A stretch of 64,000 bases of DNA from Minisyncoccota bacterium (GCA_958295675.1 OY282360.1:466026-530025); one strand, 5' to 3'; positions 4,918-54,480 are shown, counted from the first letter of the stretch. A program made the numbers and translations. The notes: generated from the letters alone by a model not told the origin.

Positions 4918-7900
4918 TTATCCTGTTACCTTAGTGCGCTTCCGATCACGCCGCGGAACCTCATCCGACTGATCCCGATCGGGTACATTCATAGTCACAT
5001 CCAAACCGAGGCCGCGCAGGTGGTATAAAAGCACATTAAATGTCGCGGGAATACCGGTTTGAACAATTGGTTCATTATGTATTATTGCTTTATACGCTAT
5101 ATTACGACCGTGCATATCATCGGATTTAATAGTGAGCATTTCACGCAGAATATACGCGGCTCCATGACCGAGCAATGCCCATACCTCCATTTCTCCCAAC
5201 CGGTTGCCGCCGAAACGCGCTCGTCCGCCGGGCGGTTGCTGAGTAATCAACGAATAACGACCGGTTGAACGGGCGTGCACTTTATCCTGCACCATGTGTT
5301 CAAGTTTCATAACATACATCCAGCCAATCGCCACATCGCCGGCGAACCGGTCACCGGTCTTGCCGTCAAACAGTTCAACGCAACCGGTATTCGGAAAACC
5401 GGCTTTTTGTAATTCTTCCTGTACCTCTCCTTCGGTCACCGATGTCATGGGCGGCACAATCGCCTGATAATTCAACGCATGCGCCGCAAGTCCGAGATGC
5501 ATTTCCAAAATTTGACCGAGGTTCTTTCTGGACGGCACACCGAGCGAAGAGAAAATCACATCGACCATTTCACCGTCCTTAGTAAACGGCATATCTTCAA
5601 TCGGCGCGACACGGGATACCACACCCTTGTTTCCATACCGATTCGCCAGTTTATCTCCGACCTGAATACGCCGCAAATCAGCAATAACAATGCGTATCTG
5701 ATTCAGAACACCGACATCCACGCCATATCCACTCTCACGATTCCGTATTGACACCGAAACTACCTTCCCTTTCTCACCGGGAGGAAGTGTTTTTGAGGTG
5801 TCCCGCATATCTTTTGCCTTATCACCAAAAATTGACTGCAAAAGTCGCTCTTCGGCTGACAATTGTATTTCACCGCGCGGTGTCAGCTTACCGACAAGGA
5901 TATCGCCGGGCAATACTTCAGAACCGACACGAACCACGCCTTCAGCATCAAGATTCCGCAATTTCTGATCAGAAACATTCGGTATATCCGCAGTCATAAC
6001 ATCAGGGCCGAGTTTGGTCTGACGTGCTTCCACAACATGCTCTTTTACCTGAGTAGAGGTAAGAACATTATCGCGTACAAGGCGTTCAGATATAATAATA
6101 GAATCCTCAAATGTCCCTCCGTCATACGGTAAAAATGCCACGCGAAGGTTCTTACCGAAAGCAATCTGTCCGTTGGTGGTGGATGCTGTATCAGCTATAA
6201 CATCACCCTTTTTCACCGTATCACCAGGGGACACAGCCGTCCGCTGATGATTCGCGAAAGTATATGCGGATCCCGCCAATGTAAAAACCTCAAGATCATG
6301 CCGCTTAATTTCTTTATTCGTTTTGATACTGATATGATTCGCGTCAGCTTCAACAACTTCCCCATCTTCATCGGCAAGCACCAAACGCCCGGAAGCGCGG
6401 GCAAATTCTTTCCCGTAACCGGTGGATACTAACGGTGCCTCCGGTCGCAAACAAGGAATTGCCTGCAGTTGCATGCGTGTGCCTGTTGCCGCGCGCATCG
6501 GCAGTGTGTTCTGCACGAACGGTATCAATACCGATGAAATAGAAAGAATCTGCCCTGTTGCAACATCCACATAATCAACTTCCTGCGGACTTACCCGCGC
6601 ATATTGTCCCTGATCACGCACTAACACAATATCCTGCATAATTTCATTTTTATCGTTCACGGTAACATGCGCACCGGCAATCCGATACTGTTCTTCTTCG
6701 GATGCGGTAAAGTACGCAACTTCATCAGTTATCTTCCCATTCACTACTTTGAAATATGGACATTCCAATAAACCGTATTTATTAATCCTCGCATACAGCG
6801 TGAGATGCAGGATAAGTCCGATGTTCGCGCCATCAGGAGAATGCAGCGGACAAATGCGTCCATAATGGGTCTGGTGTATGTCGCGAATTGAAATACCGGC
6901 ATGCTCACGGCTCACACCCCCGGTGCCAAGCGCGGATATTGTTCGTAGATGTTCCAAGTTAGTCAGAATGTTCTGCTGTTTTAAGGGTTGCGACAATTGG
7001 TTAGTATTAAAAAAACCGTGAATAGTTGATTGGAATGTGCGCATATACAGCACATTGGTCGGTAATTCAAACATCTTCGGATCCGTGGTCAGCATCTTAT
7101 CCCGCGTATTCTTACGCATACGAACAAATCCTGTTCGCGCGTATTCATACACCAATTCACCGACAGAACGCACACGCCGCAGACCGAGGTGATCAATATC
7201 ATCACCAATTGCGTCAGGTGTATGATTCAAACGCACGATTTCCTTAACAATCAACACAATGTCTTCAAGTGTTAGAATTCTATTTTTAACCGCCTCCGCA
7301 TCGGTGGGCAAACCGAAACGCTTGTTGAAACTGACCCGACCCAACTCGCTCATATCATACCACTCGGGTGAAAACCGCGTCTGCACCATTTGCTTTGCCC
7401 GCTCCGCGCTGACACCGCCGCTGGCACGAAGAATTTTGTAAAATGAAGTCCAAACATCATCCATGATATTCGCATCATCAACCGCAAATGTTTTTTTAAC
7501 ACACTCAAGTGTCCTCGGATCATCTTCAAAAAGCTGAAAAACTGCCTCTTTCGTCTCAGGACCGAATGCGCGAAGAAACAGAGTCACGGGCATTTTCCGG
7601 TTTCCCTGGTCAACACGGACAAAAATCCGACCGTTAGCATCGCTCTCAAAAGCAATCCAAAGTCCTCGCCCTTTCTGCGGTATCACCTGCGCGCCGAATG
7701 TGCGGACTCTTCCGCGCATTTCCGCAAAAAAACGAACACCCTGAGCGCGCACTAATTGCGATACCACGGTTCGTTCAATGCCATTAATGATAAAAGAATA
7801 TTGCGGAGTCATAATCGGTATATCACCGAAAAGCAATTCTTCCTCTTTAGTCGCGCCGACAACTTTATTTTCCAATGCCAACATTACCCGAAACGGAGCA

Positions 7901-8340: not shown

Positions 8341-8380
8341 AAAAGGATAAAAAATCCCACCAGTGTTTCTACTGGTGGGA
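8341..8380 (-). terminator. Rho-independent terminator hairpin (cccaccagtgtttctactggtggg) with U-tract on minus strand
   Basis: Perfect inverted repeat followed (on minus strand) by a T-run. This is copy 1 of 4 of the same element, one downstream of each LRV gene. Confidence 0.6.
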
Positions 8381-10469: not shown

Positions 10470-12053
10470 TTATTCCGCTTTCAATGCTTTCCACTGCGCT
10501 TGTACAGATTGTACAACAGATTGTACATCCGCATCCTGCGCTAAGATGGCAAGAACTTCTGGCGATATGTTTCTGTTGAAGATAACCTCCAGTCGCACTG
10601 ACAAATTTGCGTCCTCTGCCAGTCGTGCAAGCACTTCTGGCGGTGTGCTGCCGTTGCGAGCAACTGCCAGTCGCACCCGCCACTCCGCATTCTCTGCCAG
10701 TTTGGCAAGGGTTTCTGGCGGTGTACTGCTGTGGCGAGCAACCTCTTGTTGAACATCTACATCCGCACCCTCTGCCAGTCGTGCAAGCACTTCTGGCGGT
10801 GTGCTGCCGTTGCGAGCAACTGCCGCTCGCATTCGCCAATCCTCATCCTCTGCCAGTCGTGCAAGTACTTCCGACGGTGTGCTGCCGTTGCGAGCAACCT
10901 CTTGTTGAACATCTACATCCGCACCCTCTGCCAGTTTGGCAAGGGTTTCTGGCGGTGTGCTGCCGTTGCTAGCAACCTCTTGTTGAACATCTACATCCGC
11001 ACCCTCTGCCAGTCGTGCAAGCACTTCTGGCGGTGTGCTGCCGTTGCTAGCAACTACCTTTCGCATTTGCCCATCCGCACCCTCCGCCATGATGGCGAGG
11101 GATGCCGGCGGCATGTCGGGATGCCGAGCAGCCACAAGCCGAACAGACGCATAAGCATCCTCTGCCAGGATGGCGAGGGATGCCGACGGCGTGTAGTTAT
11201 GCTGAGCAACCGCATACCGGATATCAGTATCTACATCCTCTGCCAGGATGGCGAGGGATGCCGACGGCGTGTAGTGATGCTGAGCAACCGCACGCCGAAC
11301 AAACGCATAAGCATCCTCTGCCAGGGCAGCGAGCCTTGTCGGCGGCATGTCGGGATGCCCAGCAGCCACAAGCCGAACAGACGCATCCAGATCCTCTGCC
11401 AGGGCAGCGAGCCTTGTCGGCGGCATGTCGGGATGCCGAGCAGCCACAAGCCGAACAGACGCATTCAGATCCTCTGCCAAGACGGCGAGGGATGCCGGCG
11501 GTGTGTTGTCATTGCCAGCAACCAATCGCCGAACAGACGAATCCGGATCCTCTGCCAGGACGGCGAACGATACCGGCGACGTGTCAGGATGCCGAGCAAC
11601 CCATGACCGAACAGACGCATCCGGATCCTCTGCCAGGATGGCGAGGGATGCCGGCGACGTGTTGGGATGCCGAGCAACCCATAACCGAACAAACCTATTT
11701 GCATCCTCTGCCAGGGCAGCGAGCCTTGTCGGCGGCGTGTCAGGATGCCGAGCAACCGCACGCCGAACACCCGCTTCCGGATCCTCTGCCAGGGCAGCGA
11801 GCGTTGTCGGCGGCGTCTCGGGATGCTGAGCAACCGCATACCGAACATCCGCATTTGCATCCTCTGCCAGGGCAGCGAGCGTTGTCGGCGGCATGTCGGG
11901 ATGCCGAGCAGCCACAAACCGAACAGACGCATCCGGATCCTCTGCCAAGATGGCGAGAGTTTTCGACGGCGCGTCTTCGGCATGCACCGACACCGAAATG
12001 CCCGACAGGGTGAGTACGAGTACACTCAAAAGCGTGCACAGTTTCAATTTCAT
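10470..12053 (-). CDS. Secreted LRV/HEAT-like repeat protein, 527 aa (~20 repeats)
   Basis: Signal peptide MKLKLCTLLSVLVLTLSGISVSVHAEDA, then iterated LA.LAED.D..VR..VA.H.DTPP repeats. Confidence 0.75.
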   Translation of the reverse strand: MKLKLCTLLSVLVLTLSGISVSVHAEDAPSKTLAILAEDPDASVRFVAARHPDMPPTTLAALAEDANADVRYAVAQHPETPPTTLAALAEDPEAGVRRAVARHPDTPPTRLAALAEDANRFVRLWVARHPNTSPASLAILAEDPDASVRSWVARHPDTSPVSFAVLAEDPDSSVRRLVAGNDNTPPASLAVLAEDLNASVRLVAARHPDMPPTRLAALAEDLDASVRLVAAGHPDMPPTRLAALAEDAYAFVRRAVAQHHYTPSASLAILAEDVDTDIRYAVAQHNYTPSASLAILAEDAYASVRLVAARHPDMPPASLAIMAEGADGQMRKVVASNGSTPPEVLARLAEGADVDVQQEVASNGSTPPETLAKLAEGADVDVQQEVARNGSTPSEVLARLAEDEDWRMRAAVARNGSTPPEVLARLAEGADVDVQQEVARHSSTPPETLAKLAENAEWRVRLAVARNGSTPPEVLARLAEDANLSVRLEVIFNRNISPEVLAILAQDADVQSVVQSVQAQWKALKAE

Positions 12054-12112: not shown

Positions 12113-12142
12113 AGTATACATGTGTTAGTATAATATGTCAAA
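12113..12142 (-). promoter_or_regulatory. Sigma70-like promoter for the LRV gene 10470..12053 (TTGACA-17-TATACT on the minus strand)
   Basis: The reverse complement reads ttgaca tattatactaacacatg tatact. The same block is duplicated at 12941-12970, and a similar one lies near 9095-9125. Confidence 0.5.
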
Positions 12143-25671: not shown

Positions 25672-26532
25672 ATGGCGGATATATGCAAAGAACTGCGAAA
25701 ACAGTTACATGAGTTGGATGTCCTGCGTGAATCCTGTGTCTCAGTGCTTGTCAGAGAAGGAATAGAATCCGATACAGCAAAGGAAACGATTAAGAAATTT
25801 GATGCACTGGCAGAAGAATTGCGTGACAATGCTGTATTTTACAAACAACCGTTCAGTACACATTTGGATCGTATAGAGTGGAAGATAAATAATGATGAGA
25901 ACCTGACGAAATGGGAATACTGGGTGTTGTATGGTATAGATCAGCACCTGAAAGCTAACAATTATAAAGAAAAACGAAGACGAAGAGATATGGTGACAAA
26001 ATGGAGAAGCGACGAAGAAAAGAAACGGGATCTCGCATTTCTATTTGACACTACTCCTGACCGTATTTCTTTGACCGCAAAAGAAGCATGTTCCGGTACT
26101 ATACGATATCATTACGATGATCTGAATCTTGGTATTGTCACAGCCATATATTATGAATCCACTATGCCGGAGGAGGTTGGTGGTGATCTGTATTTTGGCA
26201 ATCTCAGACTCATACGGTATAAGACCACTATGCCGAAGAAGATTGGTGGTGAACTGGATCTTTGCGGACTCACATCCATAAATAATGAGCTCACTATGCC
26301 GGAGGAGGTTGGTGGTGGTCTGTGGCTCAACGGTCTCACATCCATAAAGACTGATCTCACTATGCCGAAGGAGGTTGGTGGTGATCTGCATCTCAATAAT
26401 CTAACTAGCACGCAAGGTATCACTAACTGGCCTGTCAAAATTATAGGAACTGTGAAAATAAACACAGCACTACCGAAAAATGAGAAAGTGGAAATGGAGA
26501 AACGGTATCCGGGTAAGGTAGAATACAGGTGA
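25672..26532 (+). CDS. MADICKELRK family member 4 (286 aa)
   Basis: As above. Confidence 0.8.
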   Translation: MADICKELRKQLHELDVLRESCVSVLVREGIESDTAKETIKKFDALAEELRDNAVFYKQPFSTHLDRIEWKINNDENLTKWEYWVLYGIDQHLKANNYKEKRRRRDMVTKWRSDEEKKRDLAFLFDTTPDRISLTAKEACSGTIRYHYDDLNLGIVTAIYYESTMPEEVGGDLYFGNLRLIRYKTTMPKKIGGELDLCGLTSINNELTMPEEVGGGLWLNGLTSIKTDLTMPKEVGGDLHLNNLTSTQGITNWPVKIIGTVKINTALPKNEKVEMEKRYPGKVEYR

Positions 26533-44079: not shown

Positions 44080-45330
44080 TTACTGAAACATGCCGCGTGA
44101 GCGTTTTTGCCGATGCCGAGTAATCGCGAAACGGTGCGCCTCGGCATTGGCACGAATAATAGCATGTTCATAGTCACGAGCGAACATGGGCGCGCCGAGC
44201 ACCGCGCGGGGTGTATGCTTCTCGGTCTTCACCACAGAAACAATAGGGATGGCGATACCGCTTTCCGTCAGTATATTTTGCGCGGCATCAAGATGCGCTT
44301 TTCCGCCGTCCATGACAATAAGACGGGGTAACGGCCATTCGGAATGCCGCAGACGGCGTTCCAGTATCTCTCGCAGCGCGCCGATATCGTCACCGGAAAC
44401 AGCTTCACGGATAGTGAATGTCCGATAGTCGGCTGGGGACATTTCTCCGTCAACAAGCACAACCATAACACCGACTGTATCTTTTCCCGCAAGATGCGCG
44501 ATATCATACGCTTCAATACGAAACGAACGGACACCGGGAACGGAACCTGTGTCTATACTTTCTTTTTTAATAAGCGCGACATCCTGTATATGCGTCAACG
44601 CGAAGATGCGCCGACGCACCTCTTCCGCTTTCTCAAATTCCCGTTCCTTGGCGTATTGCTTCATCTCACGCTCCAGCATAGCAATCAGTTGTTTCTTTTT
44701 CCCGCTGAAAAACAGGACTATTTCCCGTATCCGTTTCGCGTATGCTTTTTTATCTATAAGACCGGCGCACATACCGGGACACAGACCTAATTGCGCGCGG
44801 AAACACATGCGGGAACTTTTTCCGCTTGCGCGATCATGCGGCACGCATGAATCGCGAAACGGTAGAATCTTCCGTAGCACCCGAAGTGCCTCTTTGAGCA
44901 TGCCGCCGCGCGGGAACGGACCGAATATATGGCTGAATTCCATGCTCGTAATTCCCTGCTCTACATTCCTTCCGCGAACAACAAGTACACGGGGAAAATC
45001 CTCTTTCGTGATACCGACAAACTGAAAACTCTTATCATCCTTATCAACAACATTGTATGCCGGCTTGTACTTTTTTATAAAATTCGCTTCAAGAATATAC
45101 GCCTCTAAAACGCTGTCAGTCGGTATGATTTCCACTCGTTTTGCCTGTTCAACCGCATCAACAATGCGCGCACCCCTGTCGGAAGCGAGACGACCGGAAA
45201 AATAACTTCGTACACGACTGCGTAAATCAGTTGCCCGACCCGCATACAACACAACATCTCCGACACCGCGAAACAGGTATACACCCGGCAGTTCTGGTAC
45301 TATCTTAAAATCAAGATCATGTTGCTTCAT
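44080..45330 (-). CDS. uvrC: Excinuclease ABC subunit C (short form without C-terminal HhH)
   Basis: GIY-YIG motif (GVYLFRGVGDVVLYAGRATDLRSRVRSYF), a UvrBC-interaction region and a C-terminal RNase-H-like endonuclease domain. The start is placed at ATG 45330, downstream of the upstream terminator hairpin. Confidence 0.82.
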   Translation of the reverse strand: MKQHDLDFKIVPELPGVYLFRGVGDVVLYAGRATDLRSRVRSYFSGRLASDRGARIVDAVEQAKRVEIIPTDSVLEAYILEANFIKKYKPAYNVVDKDDKSFQFVGITKEDFPRVLVVRGRNVEQGITSMEFSHIFGPFPRGGMLKEALRVLRKILPFRDSCVPHDRASGKSSRMCFRAQLGLCPGMCAGLIDKKAYAKRIREIVLFFSGKKKQLIAMLEREMKQYAKEREFEKAEEVRRRIFALTHIQDVALIKKESIDTGSVPGVRSFRIEAYDIAHLAGKDTVGVMVVLVDGEMSPADYRTFTIREAVSGDDIGALREILERRLRHSEWPLPRLIVMDGGKAHLDAAQNILTESGIAIPIVSVVKTEKHTPRAVLGAPMFARDYEHAIIRANAEAHRFAITRHRQKRSRGMFQ

Positions 45331-45345
45331 GAATACAGTATATAA

Positions 45346-45386
45346 AAAAGAAAAGGCGGGACAAGAAGTCACCGCCTTTTAACCGA
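45346..45386 (-). terminator. Rho-independent terminator (aaaaggcgggacaagaagtcaccgcctttt) for gene 45410..46171
   Basis: GC-rich hairpin with flanking A/T tracts. Confidence 0.55.
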
Positions 45387-45409: not shown

Positions 45410-46171
45410 TTATTTCAGCAGCATTTCCTTGAGGTACCAGAATCTGTCTGGTTTTTTTGAAATTATTCTTCTTATTTTTTCCTCCACTTCCGCCTCAAAC
45501 GGAAAATGGTTACGCATGTCACGCAAGAAATTCGTAATCAAACGAATTGCTTGTCTGTCAGAAAAAGTGATGATGATTTGAACAGCGCGCAGGACAATGT
45601 CCTGACGACAACTGACCATATTACACTTTTCGCTCTGATCAATCGTCCGCTGCCAAAATTCGATGTGAAAAAGCGCAGTCATGACCTCATTGCACCTGCT
45701 AATCCGCACATTCCCTTCACCGCATTTCACTGTGCTAACCTCTCCCGTTTCAAAGAGAATGATGGACTGATGTCCCGGAAGCATGTGCAACAGATTCGCA
45801 TCCGAATCACGCAGCAGGGTATAAGACAAAGGAACCTTTTCCCAAGCCGTAAGCCGTTTCAAATCGTGAAAAATCGCTTTCCACGAAACGCTTGATTGAT
45901 GTTCTCCTTCCGACGGAAGAAAACTCACCTTGAGATAAACGCCTGCCTGACCCGTCAGATTACAACGATCAATCACCGTACCGTCACCAAACAACCAGGA
46001 AGGTTTGATCGTTTGCGAATCTAAAACCCGAAAACAATTCTGCCGATTCGGGTTATACGGCAGAATGTTCACTACATTTGCAAGGCGTACAACTGGACTC
46101 ACGCCGAAACTAGAAAAAGCAGCGGGGGTTTTTTCAACCACACGGAATTTCTTCATTTGTGTTTCCTCCAC
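45410..46171 (-). CDS. Hypothetical protein (253 aa)
   Basis: Intact ORF followed by a terminator. No motif was recognised. Confidence 0.4.
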   Translation of the reverse strand: MEETQMKKFRVVEKTPAAFSSFGVSPVVRLANVVNILPYNPNRQNCFRVLDSQTIKPSWLFGDGTVIDRCNLTGQAGVYLKVSFLPSEGEHQSSVSWKAIFHDLKRLTAWEKVPLSYTLLRDSDANLLHMLPGHQSIILFETGEVSTVKCGEGNVRISRCNEVMTALFHIEFWQRTIDQSEKCNMVSCRQDIVLRAVQIIITFSDRQAIRLITNFLRDMRNHFPFEAEVEEKIRRIISKKPDRFWYLKEMLLK

Positions 46172-46382
46172 AAGTGGAAATTTACGGGTACTCTAATTGC
46201 ACCCTAAAATAGTATACCAGTGCAGAATAAATATAACAACAGGAAATATAAAATAATAATTAGCGTAAAAAGCAAGAAAATACAATAAGTACCGAACAGT
46301 ATTATACACCGCTACCACAAAATACAAAAAAGAATCGCGGTGATTCCGAAGAATCACCGCGATGTAAGAAGAAAGGGAGTAA

Positions 46383-47381
46383 CTACTTGTTCCCACCAAT
46401 CCCCTTCTTAAGCGAGGATGCCATGTCCTCGCTCATGATGGAAGGAGCCGCCGGCGCCCTCTTACTCTGCTGCTTCCAGGAAAAACGGTAGAGTTTGTCC
46501 ATCGCCCGATTGAACAGACGATTTTGGCGATCGTTCAAGTCACAGGAATTCAAGAACTTTTTCAAACCCTCTACCTGCTTATCGACTTGCTTTGCAAAGT
46601 CCTCCTCGAGAGAGGTGGACTCATCGCCTTCAAAAGCCAACATGTTCAGAAGGTTTATCGCCTCCCAGGCAACAGAGGAACGATACTTGTTGATATTCCT
46701 TTTGTTAAGAAAACGCAATCTCTTCGAAACAATATCGAAGAATCTCTTGCTCCGGAAGAAGAAGGCGGTCTCGACGTTGAGAACGGAACGATTGGCATCG
46801 CCACTCTCTCTGTTAAGCAAATCAAGACCTTTCTCCGTATAGGAGATGATCTGGACCTCCCCTGTCGGCAGAAGAAGCGCGACAAAGGTGTTCGGACGAA
46901 ACTGCACCAACACCTCACCACTTCCCTGAGCGGGAACGAAAGCCGGTTTCCGGTCATCCAAATGAATGGTGCACGAACCCGTCCAAAAGGTATAACCGGC
47001 TTCCGAACGGAGATCAAACTTCACAAGCACCCGTTCATCATCACGGCCATCCGGTTTCGCAAGAAAATAGGAAGGTTTTTCACCCGCCTCGTTATTGCTT
47101 TCCACCAACGCGCGACGGCAGCGGACGAAGCCCGCCTTCTCATCCGTGTAGAGAGGACCCTTAAGCGGTCGAGGGATTGACCGCCCTCCCGCACGAAGCC
47201 ACAGTTGACCATCTTCTGGGGCATCCCACTCTAGCGAGACGCCCTCACTGATGACGAAGTCGCTGGTGTCGGAATTCCATGCTGCGGTGTATGCCGTTGC
47301 CGGCAGCTTGGCCTCCCTTTTCAGCAGTGTGCTGGCGGGGTTGACCGTGACAAGGTCGTCAACGGAAATCTTTATGGCCAT
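46383..47381 (-). CDS. Hypothetical protein (332 aa)
   Basis: Intact ORF. No motif was recognised. Confidence 0.4.
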   Translation of the reverse strand: MAIKISVDDLVTVNPASTLLKREAKLPATAYTAAWNSDTSDFVISEGVSLEWDAPEDGQLWLRAGGRSIPRPLKGPLYTDEKAGFVRCRRALVESNNEAGEKPSYFLAKPDGRDDERVLVKFDLRSEAGYTFWTGSCTIHLDDRKPAFVPAQGSGEVLVQFRPNTFVALLLPTGEVQIISYTEKGLDLLNRESGDANRSVLNVETAFFFRSKRFFDIVSKRLRFLNKRNINKYRSSVAWEAINLLNMLAFEGDESTSLEEDFAKQVDKQVEGLKKFLNSCDLNDRQNRLFNRAMDKLYRFSWKQQSKRAPAAPSIMSEDMASSLKKGIGGNK

Positions 47382-47533: not shown

Positions 47534-47755
47534 TCAAATAAAAAACACCGGAGGTGAAACATCCCAACAATCAGCACGATTGGCACGATGCTTCACTTTC
47601 CGGCAATATTTGCTCCGATCCCGTTCGGTACGGGAACGGAACTGAGGATTCGTCACCAAATCTTTGGCAACCCAATTCCCTGCTTTGTGCGACTCAAGCT
47701 GCTTAAGCCGCCGACGCTGCCGTTTTGACAGCCCTTTTTTAGCAACCGTGCTCAT
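47534..47755 (-). CDS. Small basic hypothetical protein (73 aa)
   Basis: Lys/Arg-rich ORF. It may not be a real gene. Confidence 0.25.
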   Translation of the reverse strand: MSTVAKKGLSKRQRRRLKQLESHKAGNWVAKDLVTNPQFRSRTERDRSKYCRKVKHRANRADCWDVSPPVFFI

Positions 47756-47860
47756 GCTCTCCTCCGTTTCAGGTTTGCTACACTATATATAATAGCAAAA
47801 TATAGAATATTTGTCAAAATTTCAATAAAACACTTACAAAGAGGAGTATCTCCTATATAC

Positions 47861-47889
47861 TTGACAATTCAATAAAAATTGTGTATTAT
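47861..47889 (+). promoter_or_regulatory. Strong sigma70-type promoter TTGACA-17-TATTAT
   Basis: ttgaca attcaataaaaattgtg tattat. The transcription start site is predicted near 47896. Confidence 0.6.
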
Positions 47890-47895
47890 ATATAT

Positions 47896-48036
47896 GGGTG
47901 ACGGGCGGATGCGACTCTATACGATATTGGCTACAGTCCACCCTACCCCTTCGGGACTGCGCCCTCTCCGTCATCACCTTTATACTTATCAGGCACCCCC
48001 TGCGGTTCTCCGCAGGCGGTGCCTACCACTTTTTTA
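47896..48036 (+). ncRNA. Candidate ~140-nt small RNA (unknown family) between consensus promoter and intrinsic terminator
   Basis: 5' GGGUGACGG pairs with 3' CCGUCAUCACC. It has an internal CCC-UUCG-GGG hairpin and a terminal hairpin ggcaccccctgcgg/ccgcaggcggtgcc followed by UUUUUU. It has no coding potential. Confidence 0.45.
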
Positions 48037-48136
48037 ATACATACACTAAGGTTCTTAGTGCGTACTGATACTAACTATAATACACCCCACCTTTTTTAAC
48101 TTGTATAATTACTATTTTATTGGTATAGTATTTATT

Positions 48137-48589
48137 GGAGATGGGAAGTGTCCCATCAAGACCCCATCAGGTAGGGAAGGGATTGGTACTCTCTTCGTGA
48201 AGGTGCGTGGTACTTAGAGAAAGCGTTTAGTGTGGAAAGGGTGGATCGGCGGTGTAATTCCCCGAAAATTCCGAAATGTCCCTCATTCTTTAACAAGGAT
48301 TGAGGTTTGGGTAACTGTGATGGACGAGCATAAACCACTTACCAATGGTTTGTGCAAACTCTCGTCTATTGCAGCGCCGGACCTGCTGGCAGTGGGTGCT
48401 GTCCAAGCCTGCGTGAGCCTTCCGACGTATATATGCCAAGGTTTCTGCACGCTGGGAACGGCTGCCATTGCTACGGCCGCGCGCCACAAAACATTTCCAA
48501 ACACTGAAAAAGGTCGGTAACATCCCGAGTGCCTGCTTCCTGTCTCCACCCCACACACATGTACATGTGTGTGGGGTGCATTCTTTTTT
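48137..48589 (+). ncRNA. Candidate large structured RNA, copy 1 (~450 nt, unknown class)
   Basis: Promoter TTGTAT-17-TATAGT at 48101-48129. Conserved sequence blocks are shared with copy 2 (gggaagtgt, ggtgyaattcccc, caaggattgaggtt, ttccgacgyatayagccaaggwtt, aaacactgrmaaaaggtcggtamcatc). The overlapping ORFs of the two copies are not similar at the protein level. It ends in a hairpin terminator at 48549-48589. Confidence 0.4.
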
Positions 48590-48796
48590 ACTCTGTGTCA
48601 GGTACCAGTAGAACACCTGCGCACCATTTTCTCATATCCTTCTCATCTGTACCTAACCTGCGTGGGGTGATTTTTTGCTGGCTATCAATGCTCTATATAG
48701 GCGGTGCTTTTTCCCACTTTGTATGCATGTGACAAGTGCTTTGTTAGGTTTTGATATCATAAATATAGCAAGGGATACACCTCTATGGTATAAAAC

Positions 48797-48824
48797 TTGC
48801 GAAAAATTGATCGTTTGCTATAAT
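48797..48824 (+). promoter_or_regulatory. Sigma70-type promoter TTGCGA-16-TATAAT for RNA element copy 2
   Basis: ttgcga aaaattgatcgtttgc tataat. Confidence 0.55.
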
Positions 48825-48831
48825 ACCATGC

Positions 48832-49314
48832 AGAAGATGGGAAGTGTTGGTGTGTCACAAAAAACACAACGGATTCTCATCAAGCGGGGAAGAAAGTCAT
48901 TTTCTGCTTGTGAGAATATTCAGATACTCCCGATGCAGCGTTTCAGTGCGGATACGAGTGGACCGGTGGTGCAATTCCCCGGAAAGCTTGAAGTGTCCTC
49001 GTCCTTTTGCAAGGATTGAGGTTGGCTACCGCATAGACAAGCAACTCACACTGTACCGCAGTGGTTTAAAAAAAGTGCTTGTCTTTGTACGGTTCACGAA
49101 CCCCCTGGTTCTGGAAGCTAGAGCTCATCAGCGAGTAGTAAGTGGATTCTTCCGACGCATACACGCCAAGGATTCCGCTCGCCGAGTTGGCTAACCATTA
49201 CCAACGGTCGTGTACATAAAATCACTTCCGAAACACTGGCAAAAGGTCGGTACCATCGGATATCGAACCTTCCCATCTTCTTCTTACCCCACCTATGTGT
49301 GGGGTGATTTTTTT
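48832..49314 (+). ncRNA. Candidate large structured RNA, copy 2 (~480 nt, paralog of 48137-48589)
   Basis: Same conserved blocks in the same order as copy 1, with variable intervening segments. Terminator ccccacctatgtgtgggg+T7 at 49287-49314. Confidence 0.4.
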
Positions 49315-49435
49315 GCTGGCTATCAATGCTCTATATAGGCGGTGCTTTTTCCCACTTTGTATGCATTTGACAAGTACTTTGTTAGATGTTGCTATCATAA
49401 GTATGTCAAAGGATACATCCCTTTCCTATATATAC

Positions 49436-49464
49436 TTGCGAAAAGGTATGAAATATTGTAGTAT
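49436..49464 (+). promoter_or_regulatory. Sigma70-type promoter TTGCGA-17-TAGTAT for the small membrane protein gene
   Basis: It sits in a repeated module homologous to 48656-48830. Confidence 0.5.
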
Positions 49465-49524
49465 AGATATTAAAGGTAGCAGTAAGGTGCCTTTGTTCTG
49501 TTCATTGCAAAAAGGAAGCGATTG

Positions 49525-49851
49525 ATGTCAAGAAACACCGCAGATGTTGATAGGAATGAAGAAGGTTTTCTTTCCTCATTCCCGGAAAACATCTTTCTCT
49601 TTGCACCCTTCATGATCTTGGGCGCGGGTTTCGTTAGCATACTGGTGTTCAAAACACCTTTCATGCCGACAATGCTCACCAGCGTGACGATCTTGATCAT
49701 AACCGCCTGCACTTTTTTGTTTGAGATGGCTGCGCGGTCTGAGCATAACGATCTACCTGCGAAATGGATCCTTGTCGGACTACTACTTGCACTTGCCTCT
49801 TTTGGGACCTTAACGGGGCTGTCTTGGCAGCTGCACATCGGGTGCACATAA
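49525..49851 (+). CDS. Small membrane protein (108 aa, 3 predicted TM helices)
   Basis: RBS aggaag 7 nt upstream of ATG 49525, hydrophobic segments, and a terminator ccccttcctctgcggaagggg+T7 at 49871-49899. Confidence 0.5.
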   Translation: MSRNTADVDRNEEGFLSSFPENIFLFAPFMILGAGFVSILVFKTPFMPTMLTSVTILIITACTFLFEMAARSEHNDLPAKWILVGLLLALASFGTLTGLSWQLHIGCT

Positions 49852-50042
49852 TCGGAACAACCACCACAATCCCCTTCCTCTGCGGAAGGGGATTTTTTTA
49901 TAGTATCCGTGTGTTCTTTTGTACTGTAGATTTCCGGATATGTATCTTGTAGCATTTTTTGCTATGATAGTTCCGGCTTCCCATCTTCTCCTTACCCCCA
50001 CCTATGTGGGGTGATTTTTTTATCACATACCGGATAACACTA

Positions 50043-52691
50043 TCAGGATTTTTTCTTGAGAACTTTTTTTAAATACTGACCGGTATAACTGCCGGACTCT
50101 TTTGCCACAGATTCAGGAGTTCCCGCAACAACGATAGTGCCGCCGCGCTCACCGCCTTCCGGACCTATGTCCACAACATAATCCGCATTCTTAATCACAT
50201 CCAAATTGTGTTCAATCAGCAATACTGTATTACCGCGATCCACCAGACGGTTTAATATCTCTATGAGCCGACGAACATCTTCATAATGCAGACCGACGGT
50301 CGGTTCATCCAGCAGATACATAGTTTTTCTGGTATTCGGTCGGTACAGTTCGGAGGCAATTTTCACCCGCTGCGCTTCACCGCCGGAAAGTGTTGTGGAC
50401 GGCTGACCGAGTTCAAGGTAGCCGAGACCGACATCAACCAAAGTGCTCAGGCGATCATGAATTGTCGGTATGTGCTTAAAAAATTCCGCTGCCTCTTCGG
50501 TCGGCATCACGAGCACTTCATGAATATTTTTCCCGCGATAAGTGGTATCCAACACCTCCTTGCTGTATCGCTTGCCGTGACATTCATCGCAAATCACATA
50601 CACCGTCGGCAGGAAATGCATCTCAACGGCGATAGAGCCGTTCCCTTCGCACTTCTCACATCGTCCGCCGGGGACATTAAATGAAAATCGTCCTGATTTC
50701 CAACCGCGATACCGCGCGTCCTCAGTCGCGGCAAAAAGGTCGCGAATATGCGTAAACGCGCCGACATAGGTGACGGGCGTAGAACGCGGCGTGCGTCCTA
50801 TGGGCGATTGGTCAACCAGCACAACCCTGCTTAAATCAGTATATCCCTCAAACACCTTTGTATTAAAATTTCTCTTCACCGTCAGCCGCCGCTCAAGTTT
50901 GTGACGCAAATTTTTGTACACAATATCATACAGCAGCGTTGACTTCCCCGATCCGGAAACACCGGTAATCGCCACCAGCCGTCCGAGCGGAATGGTAACG
51001 CTCACATTATTAATATTATTCGCCGTCGCACCGCGCAGCGTCAGCTGACCCCGATTCTCAGTCCGCCGCCGCTCAGGAACGGCAATCAGCCGGTCTCCGC
51101 GCAGATACGAAAGTGTCAGCGATCCGGAAGAATTGCGCTTGCTCGTGAGCAGCGATTCAAGAAAACCGGAGACGACCACTTCCCCGCCATGTTTCCCCGC
51201 TGCCGGCCCTATATCAACGATATAGTCGGCCGCGAAGATGGTGTCCTCATCATGCTCAACAACAATGATGGTATTACCGAGATCACGCAGATGCAGCAGA
51301 GTCCGTATTAACCGGTCATTATCCCGTTGATGCAGACCGATGGTGGGTTCATCAAGCACATATAACGCACCGACCAAACCGGAACCGAGCTGTGAAGCGA
51401 GCCGTATCCGCTGCGCTTCACCGCCGGAGAGCGTATTTGCCTTACGGTTCAGGGTCATGTACTCAAGCCCGACATTCCTCAAAAAAGTGATGCGGCTGAT
51501 TATTTCATTCAGCAGCGGTTCCGCGATATCCTGCTGCTGCTTGTTAAGCGTTAATTCACCAAAAAAAGAAGCGGCATGCTCAACGGTTAATCCGATAATC
51601 TCATGTATGCTATGCTTTCTTTTTTTGCCGGTAATAAAGACATGAAGCGCTTCAGGACGGAGTCGCGCGCCGTGACAGGCACCGCATGGTTCATCATCAA
51701 ACACATCAACCTGCCCGAGACCGTTGCATTCAGGACACGCGCCGTACGGTGAATTGAACGAAAACAAACGCGGTTCAATTTCAGGAAAAGAAAAACCGCA
51801 GGCGGGACACAGAAAGCGGGACGAAATGAGGGATTCAGAGCCGTCCGGATAACCGAGACGCACAAGACCGTCCGCCTCATGAATGGATCGCTCAACGGCA
51901 TCCGACAGCCGTTCACGGAACACGCGCGGATCCTTGGCATAGTCGCTGATATACAGCGCATCAACATGTATATCAATATCATGTTTCTTGGTCTTGCTGA
52001 GTGTGAGACGATTCCGAAGAGCATGTTCAGCACCGTCAACACGCGCGGTTTCATACCCTTTCCGCAACATATCATAGAGCAGCTGGTAGTATTCCCCTTT
52101 TCGGCCGATGACAAGCGGCGCAAGCACACGGAGTATCCTCTCGTTATACGCAACCCCGGCAACCGAACTACTCTTCTCCAACCACTTCTCCCGCTTGATC
52201 TTCCGTTCAATCCGCCGCACAATCTCATCCTTAGAAACCTTCTCAATCACATGCGAACATGACGGACAAAACGGCGTGCCGACACGGGAAAAGAGTACCC
52301 GAAGATAGTCGTACACTTCAGTGATGGTCGCGACGGTTGAACGCGGATTGTTGGACCTATTCTTCTGATCAATAGAAATAGCGGGAGAAAGACCGGTAAC
52401 TTCCCGAATCTCCGGCTTCTGCATCTGCCGAAGAAACTGCCTGGCATACGCGGAAAGCGATTCAACATACCGTCGCTGCCCTTCAGCGAAGATGGTGTCA
52501 AACGCCAGCGATGACTTGCCGGATCCGGAGATACCGGTACATACCGTCAGCATATTGCGCGGAATATCAACATCAATGTTTTTCAGATTATGCGTTGACG
52601 CGCCGCGAATGCGAATCCATTTGCTGTCATGCGCCATTCCGCTCTTTTTCGCGCGCGCGCCGCTTTGTTTCTTTTTTCTTTTTTCCGGCAT
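50043..52691 (-). CDS. uvrA: Excinuclease ABC subunit A
   Basis: Two ABC modules ([14 protein letters not shown] and [14 protein letters not shown]), zinc-finger Cys clusters and the [12 protein letters not shown] signature twice. The start is set at the internal ATG (MPEKRKKK), since the ORF track N-terminal extension is Cys/hydrophobic read-through. Confidence 0.95.
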
Positions 52692-52695
52692 ACTA

Positions 52696-54480
52696 TCAGC
52701 TCCGTTCTTCTGAAGAAGAAAACACGGCATCTTTTTGCACAAGCATCCGCACTGCATCATCAACAGAAAGCACCTGTTTCCTATCATCCATCTCCAAAGT
52801 AACAGCACCTGCATCGCGCTCTTTTTCACCGATCACAATCCGAGCAGGTATTTTTTCAGCATGTGTTTTCGCCACTTTCCTGCCGACACTCTCATCACTC
52901 ATATCACAATCAACCCGAAGACCGGCACCGACAAGACGGTCAGACACAGTACGCGCGTATGCATGCGCACTCTCACCGACTGACAGCACCCGCACCTGCA
53001 CCGGCGCGAGGAAAAACGGAAAATAGCCGGCGAAGTGTTCAATCATCACGCCCAAGAAACGCTCCAGAGAACCGGACACGGCGCGATGTATCATTATCGG
53101 CACCTGCTTCCTGTTGCCGGAGTCAACATAGGAAAGATTAAAACGCTCCGGCATCACAAAATCAAGCTGTATGGTCGCCAACTGCCACTTCCTGCGCAGC
53201 GAGTCCCGAAAGTGAAAATCAATTTTCGGTCCGTAAAACGCCGCTTCCCCCGCTTCAATGACAAACGGCAAACCAGCGCGCTCAAGCGCGCTTGTAAGGT
53301 ATCGTTCAGCATTGTCCCACACGGCATTGTCACCGAGATAGCTGTCCGTATCACTGCCGCGCACCGAAAGAAACACTTCACAATCATCACCGCGGAAAAA
53401 ACCGAGTGCGGTGTAGAATTCCTTGATAAGTGAAATGGTCGCGGAAACTTCCTCCTCAATCTGCTCTTCCGTGCAGAAAATATGCCCGTCATCCTGCGTA
53501 ATACTCAGCACCCGTGTCAGACCGAGCAATTCGCCCTTCTGTTCATCCCGATAGTTGGTCGTGAATTCCGCGTATCGGATAGGAAGATCGTTATAGCTCC
53601 GCAGCGCGCTCGCGTATATCTGCGTGTGGTGCGGGCAGTTCATCGGTTTCAGCACAAATTCGTCATGCCTGCCGCGCACGGTGAGCAGTTCATCGCCGAA
53701 TTTATCCCAATGCCCCGATGTCTCGTACAATTCTTTCTTCGCCAGATGCGGTATCCATACATGCTCATAGCCGTACCTTTCCAACAGCACAGACAAAGAT
53801 TTTTCCAATGCCCTGCGAAGCGCGTTCCCTTTCGGCGTGAACAGCGGCAATCCGGAGCCGACTAACGGCGAAAAAGTAAACAACCCTAATGCTTTCCCTA
53901 TCTTCCGATGATCCCGCGCCTTTGCTTCTTCAAGCATTCGCTGATACTCATTAAGGTCTTCCTTGGTGTCAAACGCAAGACCGTACACACGCGTCAGCAT
54001 AGTATTTTGCTCATCACCGCGCCAGTACGCGCCGGCAACGGATTGCAGCGCGAAACTGTCAGGATGTATGGAAGAAATATCGTCAACATGACCGCCGCCG
54101 CATAAGTCAATAAAATCACCGGAAGTATATAATGTAATCTCTTTTCCGGCGACAGAAAGTTCGTCAATCAACTCACACTTGTACGGATTATCCTTAAAAT
54201 ACGCAAGTGCCTCCTCTGATGAAACAACCTTTTTTTCAAAAACAGTCCATTGCCCGAGCATCTCCCGCATTTTTTCCTCAACGGCACCCAAATCATCAAC
54301 AGAAAGCGGAACAGGAATTTCAGCATCATAGTAGAAACCGTCATCAATGGCGGGACCGATGGCAAGCTTAGTACCGGGATACAAAGCAACCAGTGCCGCG
54401 CCGAGCGCGTGCGCCAAAGAGTGCCGTTTCTCCTGCAATACATCTGCGGTCTCAGAACTCATACCTTGGTAGAATAACAC
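52696..54480 (-). CDS. thrS: Threonyl-tRNA synthetase (N-terminally reduced, 594 aa)
   Basis: Editing-domain motif [10 protein letters not shown]...[11 protein letters not shown], catalytic-core motif [12 protein letters not shown]...[23 protein letters not shown] and a C-terminal anticodon-binding domain. There is no TGS domain. Confidence 0.9.

Follow-up and report, generated by a model that had tools for sequence, protein, structure and literature searches.

RsaE/RoxS is a small RNA (sRNA) of the Bacillales (Firmicutes), and expression of RoxS depends on ResDE. Its gene stands alone, is ~100–140 nt long, and has its own promoter and intrinsic terminator; the RNA carries the motif UACCCCUU in a hairpin loop and a second motif, CAUC(C/A)CCUUU, just ahead of the terminator. 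RsaE/RoxS contains several unpaired C-rich (CCCC) regions, including a duplicated CCCCUUUGUU, and these regions pair with G-rich Shine-Dalgarno sequences (PMC4409812). RsaE is conserved among Firmicutes (PMC6158497). The candidate sRNA described here has size, promoter/terminator architecture, single-stranded seeds, and a lineage-restricted distribution in common with the Rho-independent, Hfq-independent, trans-acting sRNAs of Gram-positive bacteria. It also resembles the 6S and 4.5S/SRP RNAs in its rod-like hairpin appearance and strong promoter, and transcription-attenuating riboswitches or leaders in having a structured 5′ domain that is closed by a P1-like helix, then a short linker and a terminator. 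6S RNA is a rod of ~180 nt with a central bubble that resembles an open promoter. To our knowledge, regulatory RNAs are almost uncharted in the Patescibacteria (CPR), which have tiny genomes, and our search of the literature on CPR non-coding RNAs found nothing relevant.

The candidate lies in a 64,000-nt stretch of DNA (the window), which is >90% coding and comes from a genome of ~724 kb. The host belongs to the Patescibacteria/Paceibacterota and is of the Paceibacteria type, as a scan of GTDB representatives anchored on UvrC returned only such genomes, the best with 63% identity. Here, a GC-rich, non-coding stretch of ~140 nt is probably a small RNA gene (Table 1).

Table 1. Positions of the candidate sRNA, its parts, and neighboring features. 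Positions are those of the window, except for entries in the related loci L087 and L088.
Feature	Position	Strand	Description
Sigma-70-type promoter	47861–47889	+	−35 TTGACA 47861–47866, 17-nt spacer, −10 TATTAT 47884–47889
Predicted primary transcript	47896–48035	+	~140 nt; based on sequence and fold, ends predicted
Core domain	47896–47979	+	helices with high predicted pair probability; stability not above shuffled controls
Core closing helix	47896–47901 with 47974–47979; 47904–47909 with 47967–47972	+	
Core internal loop	47910–47928	+	asymmetric, 19 nt
Core inner helix	47929–47939 with 47954–47963	+	GGC/GCC and CAGUCC/GGACUG
Apical loop, candidate seed region	47940–47953	+	C-rich, ACCCUACCCCUUCG; 14 nt, mean unpaired probability 0.93
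Linker	47980–47990	+	single-stranded, A/U-rich, UUAUACUUAUC; 11 nt, mean unpaired probability 0.99
Intrinsic-terminator-like element	47991–48035	+	hairpin 47991–48024, spacer ACCAC 48025–48029, U6 48030–48035
47-aa sense frame	ATG 47894 to TAA 48035–48037	+	starts at predicted transcription start, ends in terminator tail
big1 promoter	48101–48129	+	TTGTAT-17-TGgTATAGT
big1	48137–48590	+	structured RNA, ~450 nt
big2 promoter	48797–48824	+	TTGCGA-16-TATAAT
big2	48831–49316	+	structured RNA, ~450 nt
Repeat D1	48659–48805 / 49296–49444		terminator tail plus promoter module, 88% identity
47-nt repeat	49269–49315 / 49977–50021		final 47 nt of big2 with terminator, recurring by uvrA stop; 91% identity
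p109	49522–49851	+	ORF
Lineage-specific insertion	~47818–50042		2.2 kb, uvrA stop to conserved p73 promoter; sRNA, two large structured RNAs, ORF p109
p73	47534–47755	−	73-aa basic protein
p73 internal terminator hairpin	47603–47548		
p253 and p332 genes	45410–47381		
uvrC	44080–45372	−	
uvrA	50043–52829	−	
Unit X	L088 6043–6212 (wider span 6008–6212)		12/12 promoter, tandem terminators, z = −3.8
Unit Y	L087 10785–10975 (wider span 10745–10975) = L088 ~6262–6450 (6229–6450)		TTGACA-18-TAGTAT promoter, 10/12

Multiple features of the DNA support an independent transcription unit. First, the TTGACA-17-TATTAT promoter that an earlier note on this DNA had read by eye is present on the + strand and agrees with the sigma-70 consensus at 11 of 12 positions. 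Sites that match at 11/12 or better occur five times in the 64-kb window, compared to 1.07 expected from first-order Markov simulations, and three of the five cluster at 47.5–47.9 kb. From this promoter, we infer a transcript start at ~G47896, the first purine 7 nt past the −10 element, and an end at the final U of the U6 tract. Second, GC content is 60% in the body of the sRNA but 26% and 28% in the two intergenic stretches that flank it. Third, the terminator hairpin (AGGCACC-C-CCUGCGG / UUCU loop / CCGCAGG-C-GGUGCCU), with a predicted energy of −28.8 kcal/mol, is the most stable among the 14 sites on both strands of the window at which a hairpin is followed by T6. Finally, by our own estimate, a promoter match of at least 11/12 and a terminator of this kind would co-occur by chance within 200 nt on the same strand ~0.02 times in the window. 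The promoter match, the strength of the hairpin, the rarity of chance pairings, and the GC contrast therefore indicate that these signals are real and beyond chance, and a near-consensus promoter followed, in AT-rich DNA, by a GC-rich body and a very stable hairpin with U6 is most simply read as a transcription unit that stands alone.

The overall arrangement is that of a stand-alone sRNA gene with an intrinsic terminator, as the promoter, a body free of ORFs that score as coding, a terminator on one strand, and an intergenic location are all present; the caveat is a 5-nt spacer between the stem and the U-run. In the earlier note, the terminator had been described as a 14-bp GC hairpin plus U6 and as textbook. 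The 7+7 bp of the stem and the U6 are there, but a C–C mismatch interrupts the stem and the U-run is 5 nt away from it. With these departures, and with no call by a simple terminator scan, "textbook" was too generous a description. Because of the distance between stem and U-run, termination may be leaky.

Such leakiness, together with the mismatch in the stem, would suit a reading in which the unit forms the 5′ leader, or the first cistron, of a longer RNA whose transcription continues into big1, a structured RNA that starts 100 nt downstream on the same strand and has a weaker promoter of its own. The unit would then be a processed precursor or a cis-acting attenuator, and its succession of aptamer-like domain, linker, and terminator does resemble a transcription-attenuating leader. 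However, we found no antiterminator alternative, and the centroid structure kept both domains intact in a 242-nt context, which argue against a riboswitch-like leader. Moreover, the unit matched no riboswitch or leader family, big1 and its paralog big2 each have a promoter, no similar element lies ahead of big2, and the element downstream of the sRNA is an RNA rather than a regulated coding gene. We regard the leader reading as improbable, and treat the unit below as a stand-alone sRNA candidate.

The earlier note had also proposed a rod in which the 5′ and 3′ parts of the transcript pair. This pairing is predicted, with 5′ GGGUGA/GGCGGA joined to 3′ UCCGUC/UCACCU in both the minimum-free-energy (MFE) and centroid structures, but the core that it closes is no more stable than its shuffled counterparts. 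Indeed, the whole 141 nt folded with −55.5 kcal/mol and z = −5.0, whereas the 85-nt core by itself gave −26.7 kcal/mol and z = −1.23, a value matched by 26 of 200 shuffles. The significance of the whole-transcript fold is thus supplied by the terminator hairpin. Among GC-corrected 141-nt genomic windows, the sRNA unit ranked no higher than 261 of 6386. An internal CCCUUCGGG hairpin (CCC-UUC-GGG), another part of the earlier proposal, is disfavored, as the MFE structure pairs CAGUCC with GGACUG and leaves the C-rich segment as a 14-nt loop.

Searches of known RNA families bore out the by-eye statement that the transcript is not tmRNA, SRP, 6S, or RNase P RNA. Rfam 15 at gathering thresholds found a tRNA-Pro alone in the whole window, and the covariance-model scan that the earlier note had called for gave no family, including 6S, at gathering score for the candidate. 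At E ≤ 10, searches over 1.3 kb and over 161 nt returned no match to 6S, SRP, tmRNA, RNase P, or a riboswitch, and ARAGORN reported tRNA-Pro and no tmRNA in the window. The architecture also differs from these RNAs. Compared to 6S RNA, the candidate is too short, with a core of just 84 nt, and does not have the central bubble; compared to SRP RNA, it is without the domain IV motifs. A housekeeping RNA would also be expected to be conserved in relatives, and this sRNA is not.

Among 4227 Rfam models, the top match was RsaE/RoxS (RF01820), which scored 17.1 bits where the gathering score is 79. Its E value was 0.83 in the 161-nt search and 6.7 in the 1.3-kb search, and the match is not significant. 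In this sub-threshold alignment, the RsaE loop consensus is identical in the sRNA, CAUCCCCUUUGU is aligned to CAUCACCUUUAU, and the terminators align, but the outer helices remain unaligned and part of the score reflects a generic terminator match. The sRNA has one unpaired C-rich loop, which contains CCC and CCCC. A second motif like that of RsaE, CAUCACCU, falls in a predicted paired region (mean unpaired probability 0.22); this second motif, with CAUCACCUUU, has one C fewer than its RsaE/RoxS counterpart and is mostly buried in the closing helix. The sRNA also has an additional 36-nt 5′ arm. At most, then, the likeness to RsaE/RoxS would be one of functional analogy and not of membership, although no other concrete mechanism is suggested by the anatomy of the candidate. 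A rival reading would place the candidate, in strongly diverged form, within a known family (RsaE/RoxS, 6S, SRP, tmRNA, or RNase P RNA). It is suggested by the identical loop motif of this one sub-threshold alignment, but no family reached gathering score, ARAGORN was negative, the candidate differs in size and architecture from the last four of these RNAs, and the host is a member of the Patescibacteria rather than of the Firmicutes among which RsaE is conserved. We consider such membership extremely improbable.

Coding potential was assessed as a log-likelihood, using codon usage trained on 22 long genes from the window. The earlier note had stated that there is no ORF. Taken literally, this statement does not hold, as three ORFs overlap the unit (52 aa, or 47 aa from ATG 47894; 56 aa; and 47 aa on the reverse strand), but their codon usage scores as non-coding. 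The sense frames gave −9.8 and −2.9 bits, compared to a mean of +13 bits and a 5th percentile of +2.2 bits for genuine 47-codon gene chunks, and none of the overlapping ORFs had a Pfam or PHROG match. The unit is unlikely to be coding. The 47-aa sense frame nevertheless spans exactly the distance from the expected start to the terminator, as would be the case for a leaderless mRNA. Against an mRNA of this kind, this is the frame that scored −9.8 bits, below the 5th percentile of genuine gene chunks; two further frames are open, as expected at 60% GC; there is no Shine-Dalgarno sequence; and the terminator hairpin would have to encode part of the peptide. We judge a leaderless mRNA to be very improbable.

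The reading that we favor, as a plausible but tentative one, is that the unit specifies a lineage-specific, independently transcribed, non-coding RNA of ~140 nt that would most likely act in trans, possibly through its C-rich loop. In this model, the near-consensus housekeeping promoter would drive strong and probably constitutive transcription from ~G47896, and the very stable hairpin plus U6 would stop most transcripts at ~48035. The mature RNA would expose three single-stranded segments, the 14-nt C-rich loop, the 19-nt internal loop, and the 11-nt linker, on a modest hairpin scaffold. By analogy with the C-rich regions of RsaE/RoxS, the loop could pair with G-rich, Shine-Dalgarno-like segments of mRNAs, and such pairing might repress translation or alter mRNA decay. 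We propose this C-rich-loop mechanism with modest confidence.

Searches for targets within the window gave results close to background. Complements of the three single-stranded segments occurred at approximately chance frequency, and when the loop was paired with the 45 translation-initiation regions of the 64-kb window, 4 of 45 fell below 5% background compared to 2.25 expected, which is not significant. The top loop-pairing matches belonged to UvrB, RNase H, and two LRV-repeat proteins. Of the complements, the best was a perfect one of 12 nt to the internal loop (ACUCUAUACGAU); it occurs at 25868–25879 on the + strand, within the coding sequence 25672–26532, where ~0.09 would be expected; it is not at a ribosome-binding site and is not significant. 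Pairing of the sRNA with big1, big2, and the leaders of p73 and p109 was not above background.

Comparison with related genomes places the sRNA in DNA that is specific to this lineage. Of 80 related loci, 70 have uvrA a short distance ahead of uvrC in the same orientation, in most cases at <600 nt, whereas these genes are 4.67 kb apart in the window, where thrS is a further flanking gene. Four loci with homologs of p73, in which UvrA is 81% identical to that of the window, have the gene order thrS-uvrA-p73 homolog-uvrC-FemAB-like gene. The uvrA to p73-homolog distance is just 43–284 nt in the closest relatives, and the p73 promoter is recognizably conserved in one of them, L087. The gene order of the relatives and this promoter indicate that p73 is ancestral at its position. 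The DNA between the uvrA stop codon and the conserved p73 promoter is a lineage-specific insertion, in which the sRNA, big1, big2, and p109 all lie on the + strand. On the other side of p73, the p332 and p253 genes have been inserted.

The sRNA itself is present as a single copy in the window, and we found no homolog with blastn at word size 7 or with a covariance model built from the single sequence (R1) in 88 related loci (1.38 Mb; 80 anchored on UvrC in Paceibacteria and 8 anchored on p73). Exact-motif scans of viral and JGI metagenome contigs and blastn against phage and plasmid collections were likewise empty. One R1 match in L087 (148–214; 13 bits, E = 0.8), which has an identical ACCCUACCCC loop, was rejected as a homolog of the gene because it lies within a GC-rich tandem repeat without promoter or terminator. 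Similar GC-rich, tandem-like repeats occupy intergenic DNA of the relatives (L087 148–530 and 9717–9940; L088 5380–5600), including the site that corresponds to the RNA island of the window. In the same orientation as the sRNA, these repeats contain GGGTGCGGGCGG, which weakly resembles the sRNA 5′ end GGGTGACGGGCGG (p ~0.07 before multiple-test correction), and another contains ACCCTACCCCCTCG, which weakly resembles the sRNA loop (p ~0.03 before multiple-test correction). Such repeats could have been the raw material of the sRNA body.

Within the insertion, a module of terminator tail plus promoter is duplicated (repeat D1) and drives big2 and p109. The end of big2 recurs near the uvrA stop codon, and direct repeats thus flank a p109 cassette. 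The island grew by local duplication or insertion. The sRNA segment AGGCGGTGC...CCACTTT was considered as a third copy of D1, but its similarity was not significant (p = 0.56).

These observations bear on the main rival to the sRNA reading, namely that the unit is a functionless transcribed by-product of a rearrangement hotspot, in which a GC-rich and possibly repeat-derived fragment came to lie between a promoter and a terminator shuffled into a hypervariable site. Its position in a lineage-specific insertion, the repeated duplication of terminator/promoter modules in the island, the GC-rich repeats at the homologous site in relatives, a core fold that is not above chance, and the lack of a homolog are all consistent with such an origin. 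However, useless, strongly promoted DNA would be unlikely to persist in so small and densely coding a genome, where the intergenic regions of the window are <370 nt except for the first 1.2 kb (in which an ORF extends past the edge) and the 2,287 nt that separate p73 from uvrA. In addition, the promoter is near-perfect, the terminator is the strongest in the window, and the similarities to the repeats become marginal once multiple tests are corrected for. On balance, we consider a by-product rather unlikely and continue to prefer a functional sRNA.

Two further units in the relatives with 81%-identical UvrA also bear on this choice. Like the sRNA, units X and Y fall in the uvrA–uvrC interval and are built from a promoter, a GC-rich ORF-free body, and a strong terminator, and unit X begins with (A)GGUGA and closes with UCACCU ahead of a short linker and terminator. 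Unit Y (z = −7.7) is predicted to fold into three hairpins, with a CU-rich stretch left single-stranded. Unlike the sRNA, both units lie between the p73 homolog and uvrC, across the p73 gene from the site of the sRNA, and their strand relative to that gene is the opposite one. We found no significant match in sequence or common structure between these units and the sRNA, no sequence similarity between them and big1 or big2 of the window, and no Rfam family for either. The presence of units X and Y at uvrA–uvrC indicates that this clade carries small RNA genes at the site. It raises the prior that promoter- and terminator-flanked GC-rich units here are genuine RNA genes, and also shows that they turn over rapidly; the uvrA–uvrC interval resembles a hotspot of rapid RNA-gene evolution.

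The large RNAs big1 and big2, which lie directly downstream of the sRNA, are paralogous. Each has its own terminator as well as its own promoter, and their MFE z scores are −6.7 and −5.5, respectively. Patches of the two are 77% identical, compensatory changes occur at 14 of 91 consensus pairs, and both have a 5′/3′ closing stem, GAGAUGGGAAG/CUUCCyrUCUC. We detected no reading frame conserved between them, no Rfam match at E ≤ 10, and no match elsewhere in motif or covariance-model searches, and they could belong to a new class of large non-coding RNA. Homology of the sRNA to big1 or big2 was considered, and none was found.

With these RNAs, three strongly promoted candidate non-coding RNAs (one of 140 nt and two of ~450 nt) lie within 1.4 kb, and the sRNA might be a structured RNA that binds a protein or RNA of the island, for example the two large RNAs or p73, rather than mRNAs. 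Its clustering with big1 and big2 on one strand, the 44-nt divergent promoter region that it has in common with p73, and a UAUAC-containing motif, read from the sequence in both the internal loop and the linker, would fit a binding partner of this kind. By contrast, homologs of p73 in relatives have no adjacent sRNA, duplex energies with big1 and big2 did not exceed background (best p ~0.08), and the core structure is not unusually stable, and we think it distinctly improbable that the sRNA serves this role. A broader scenario, and quite a speculative one, is that one lineage of Paceibacteria carries an RNA-only module in which the sRNA is a guide, regulator, or partner of big1/big2, with the uvrA–uvrC interval acting as a nursery for unrelated sRNA genes that come and go.

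On its own, an unconserved sRNA candidate is an ordinary prediction, and the value of this one hinges on its expression and on the neighboring large RNAs. If the sRNA is real, then reduced genomes still invest in lineage-specific RNA genes, and uvrA–uvrC is a defined hotspot of their gain and loss. Arguably, big1/big2 and p73, in which a terminator precedes the stop codon, are more interesting than the sRNA.

The p73 gene is divergent from the sRNA and lies 140 nt upstream. An exhaustive HMMER search found five distant relatives of its product. The p73 ORF contains a strong intrinsic terminator with the stem CCGGAAAGUGAAGCAUC...GAUGUUUCACCUCCGG followed by UGUUUUUUAUUUGA. The stop codon starts 12 nt past this stem, and a terminated mRNA would therefore lack a stop codon. 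In three of the five homologs (L081 8129–8368, L084 9821–10069, and L087 10001–10192), a covarying hairpin and a U-rich tract also precede the stop codon. A terminator before the stop codon is a hallmark of BrfA and ArfA, RF2-dependent ribosome-rescue factors that are made from non-stop mRNAs (PMC6881298). By eye, p73 seemed to resemble E. coli ArfA, but its assignment as ArfA was rejected, as it had no ArfA/BrfA match in PDB sequences, Pfam, NCBIfam, PHROGs, or PADLOC; its one Pfam match was a weak one to DUF7230. We consider p73 a candidate for a new family of alternative rescue factors in Patescibacteria.

In a search of 5.8 billion proteins, p332 (332 aa) and p73 returned no protein other than themselves and p109 returned none, and exact look-ups of p332 and p73 returned no record. 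Products p253, p332, and p109 have no Pfam, PHROG, PADLOC, or NCBIfam match. Codon usage in p253 and p332 is native-like, and p332 shows no more than a faint tblastn match (29–32% identity) with a gene that follows the FemAB-like gene in L087 and L088.

Repeated terminators occur elsewhere in the window. Four near-identical hairpins (CCCACCAGUGGAAACGCUGGUGGG plus a T-run) lie on the − strand, with T-runs at 8354, 9166, 10395, and 12217, and are interspersed among genes for LRV/HEAT-repeat proteins at 8.4–12.1 kb. Two of the 11/12 promoters, at 12141 and 12969, are near the terminators of these LRV/HEAT-repeat genes.
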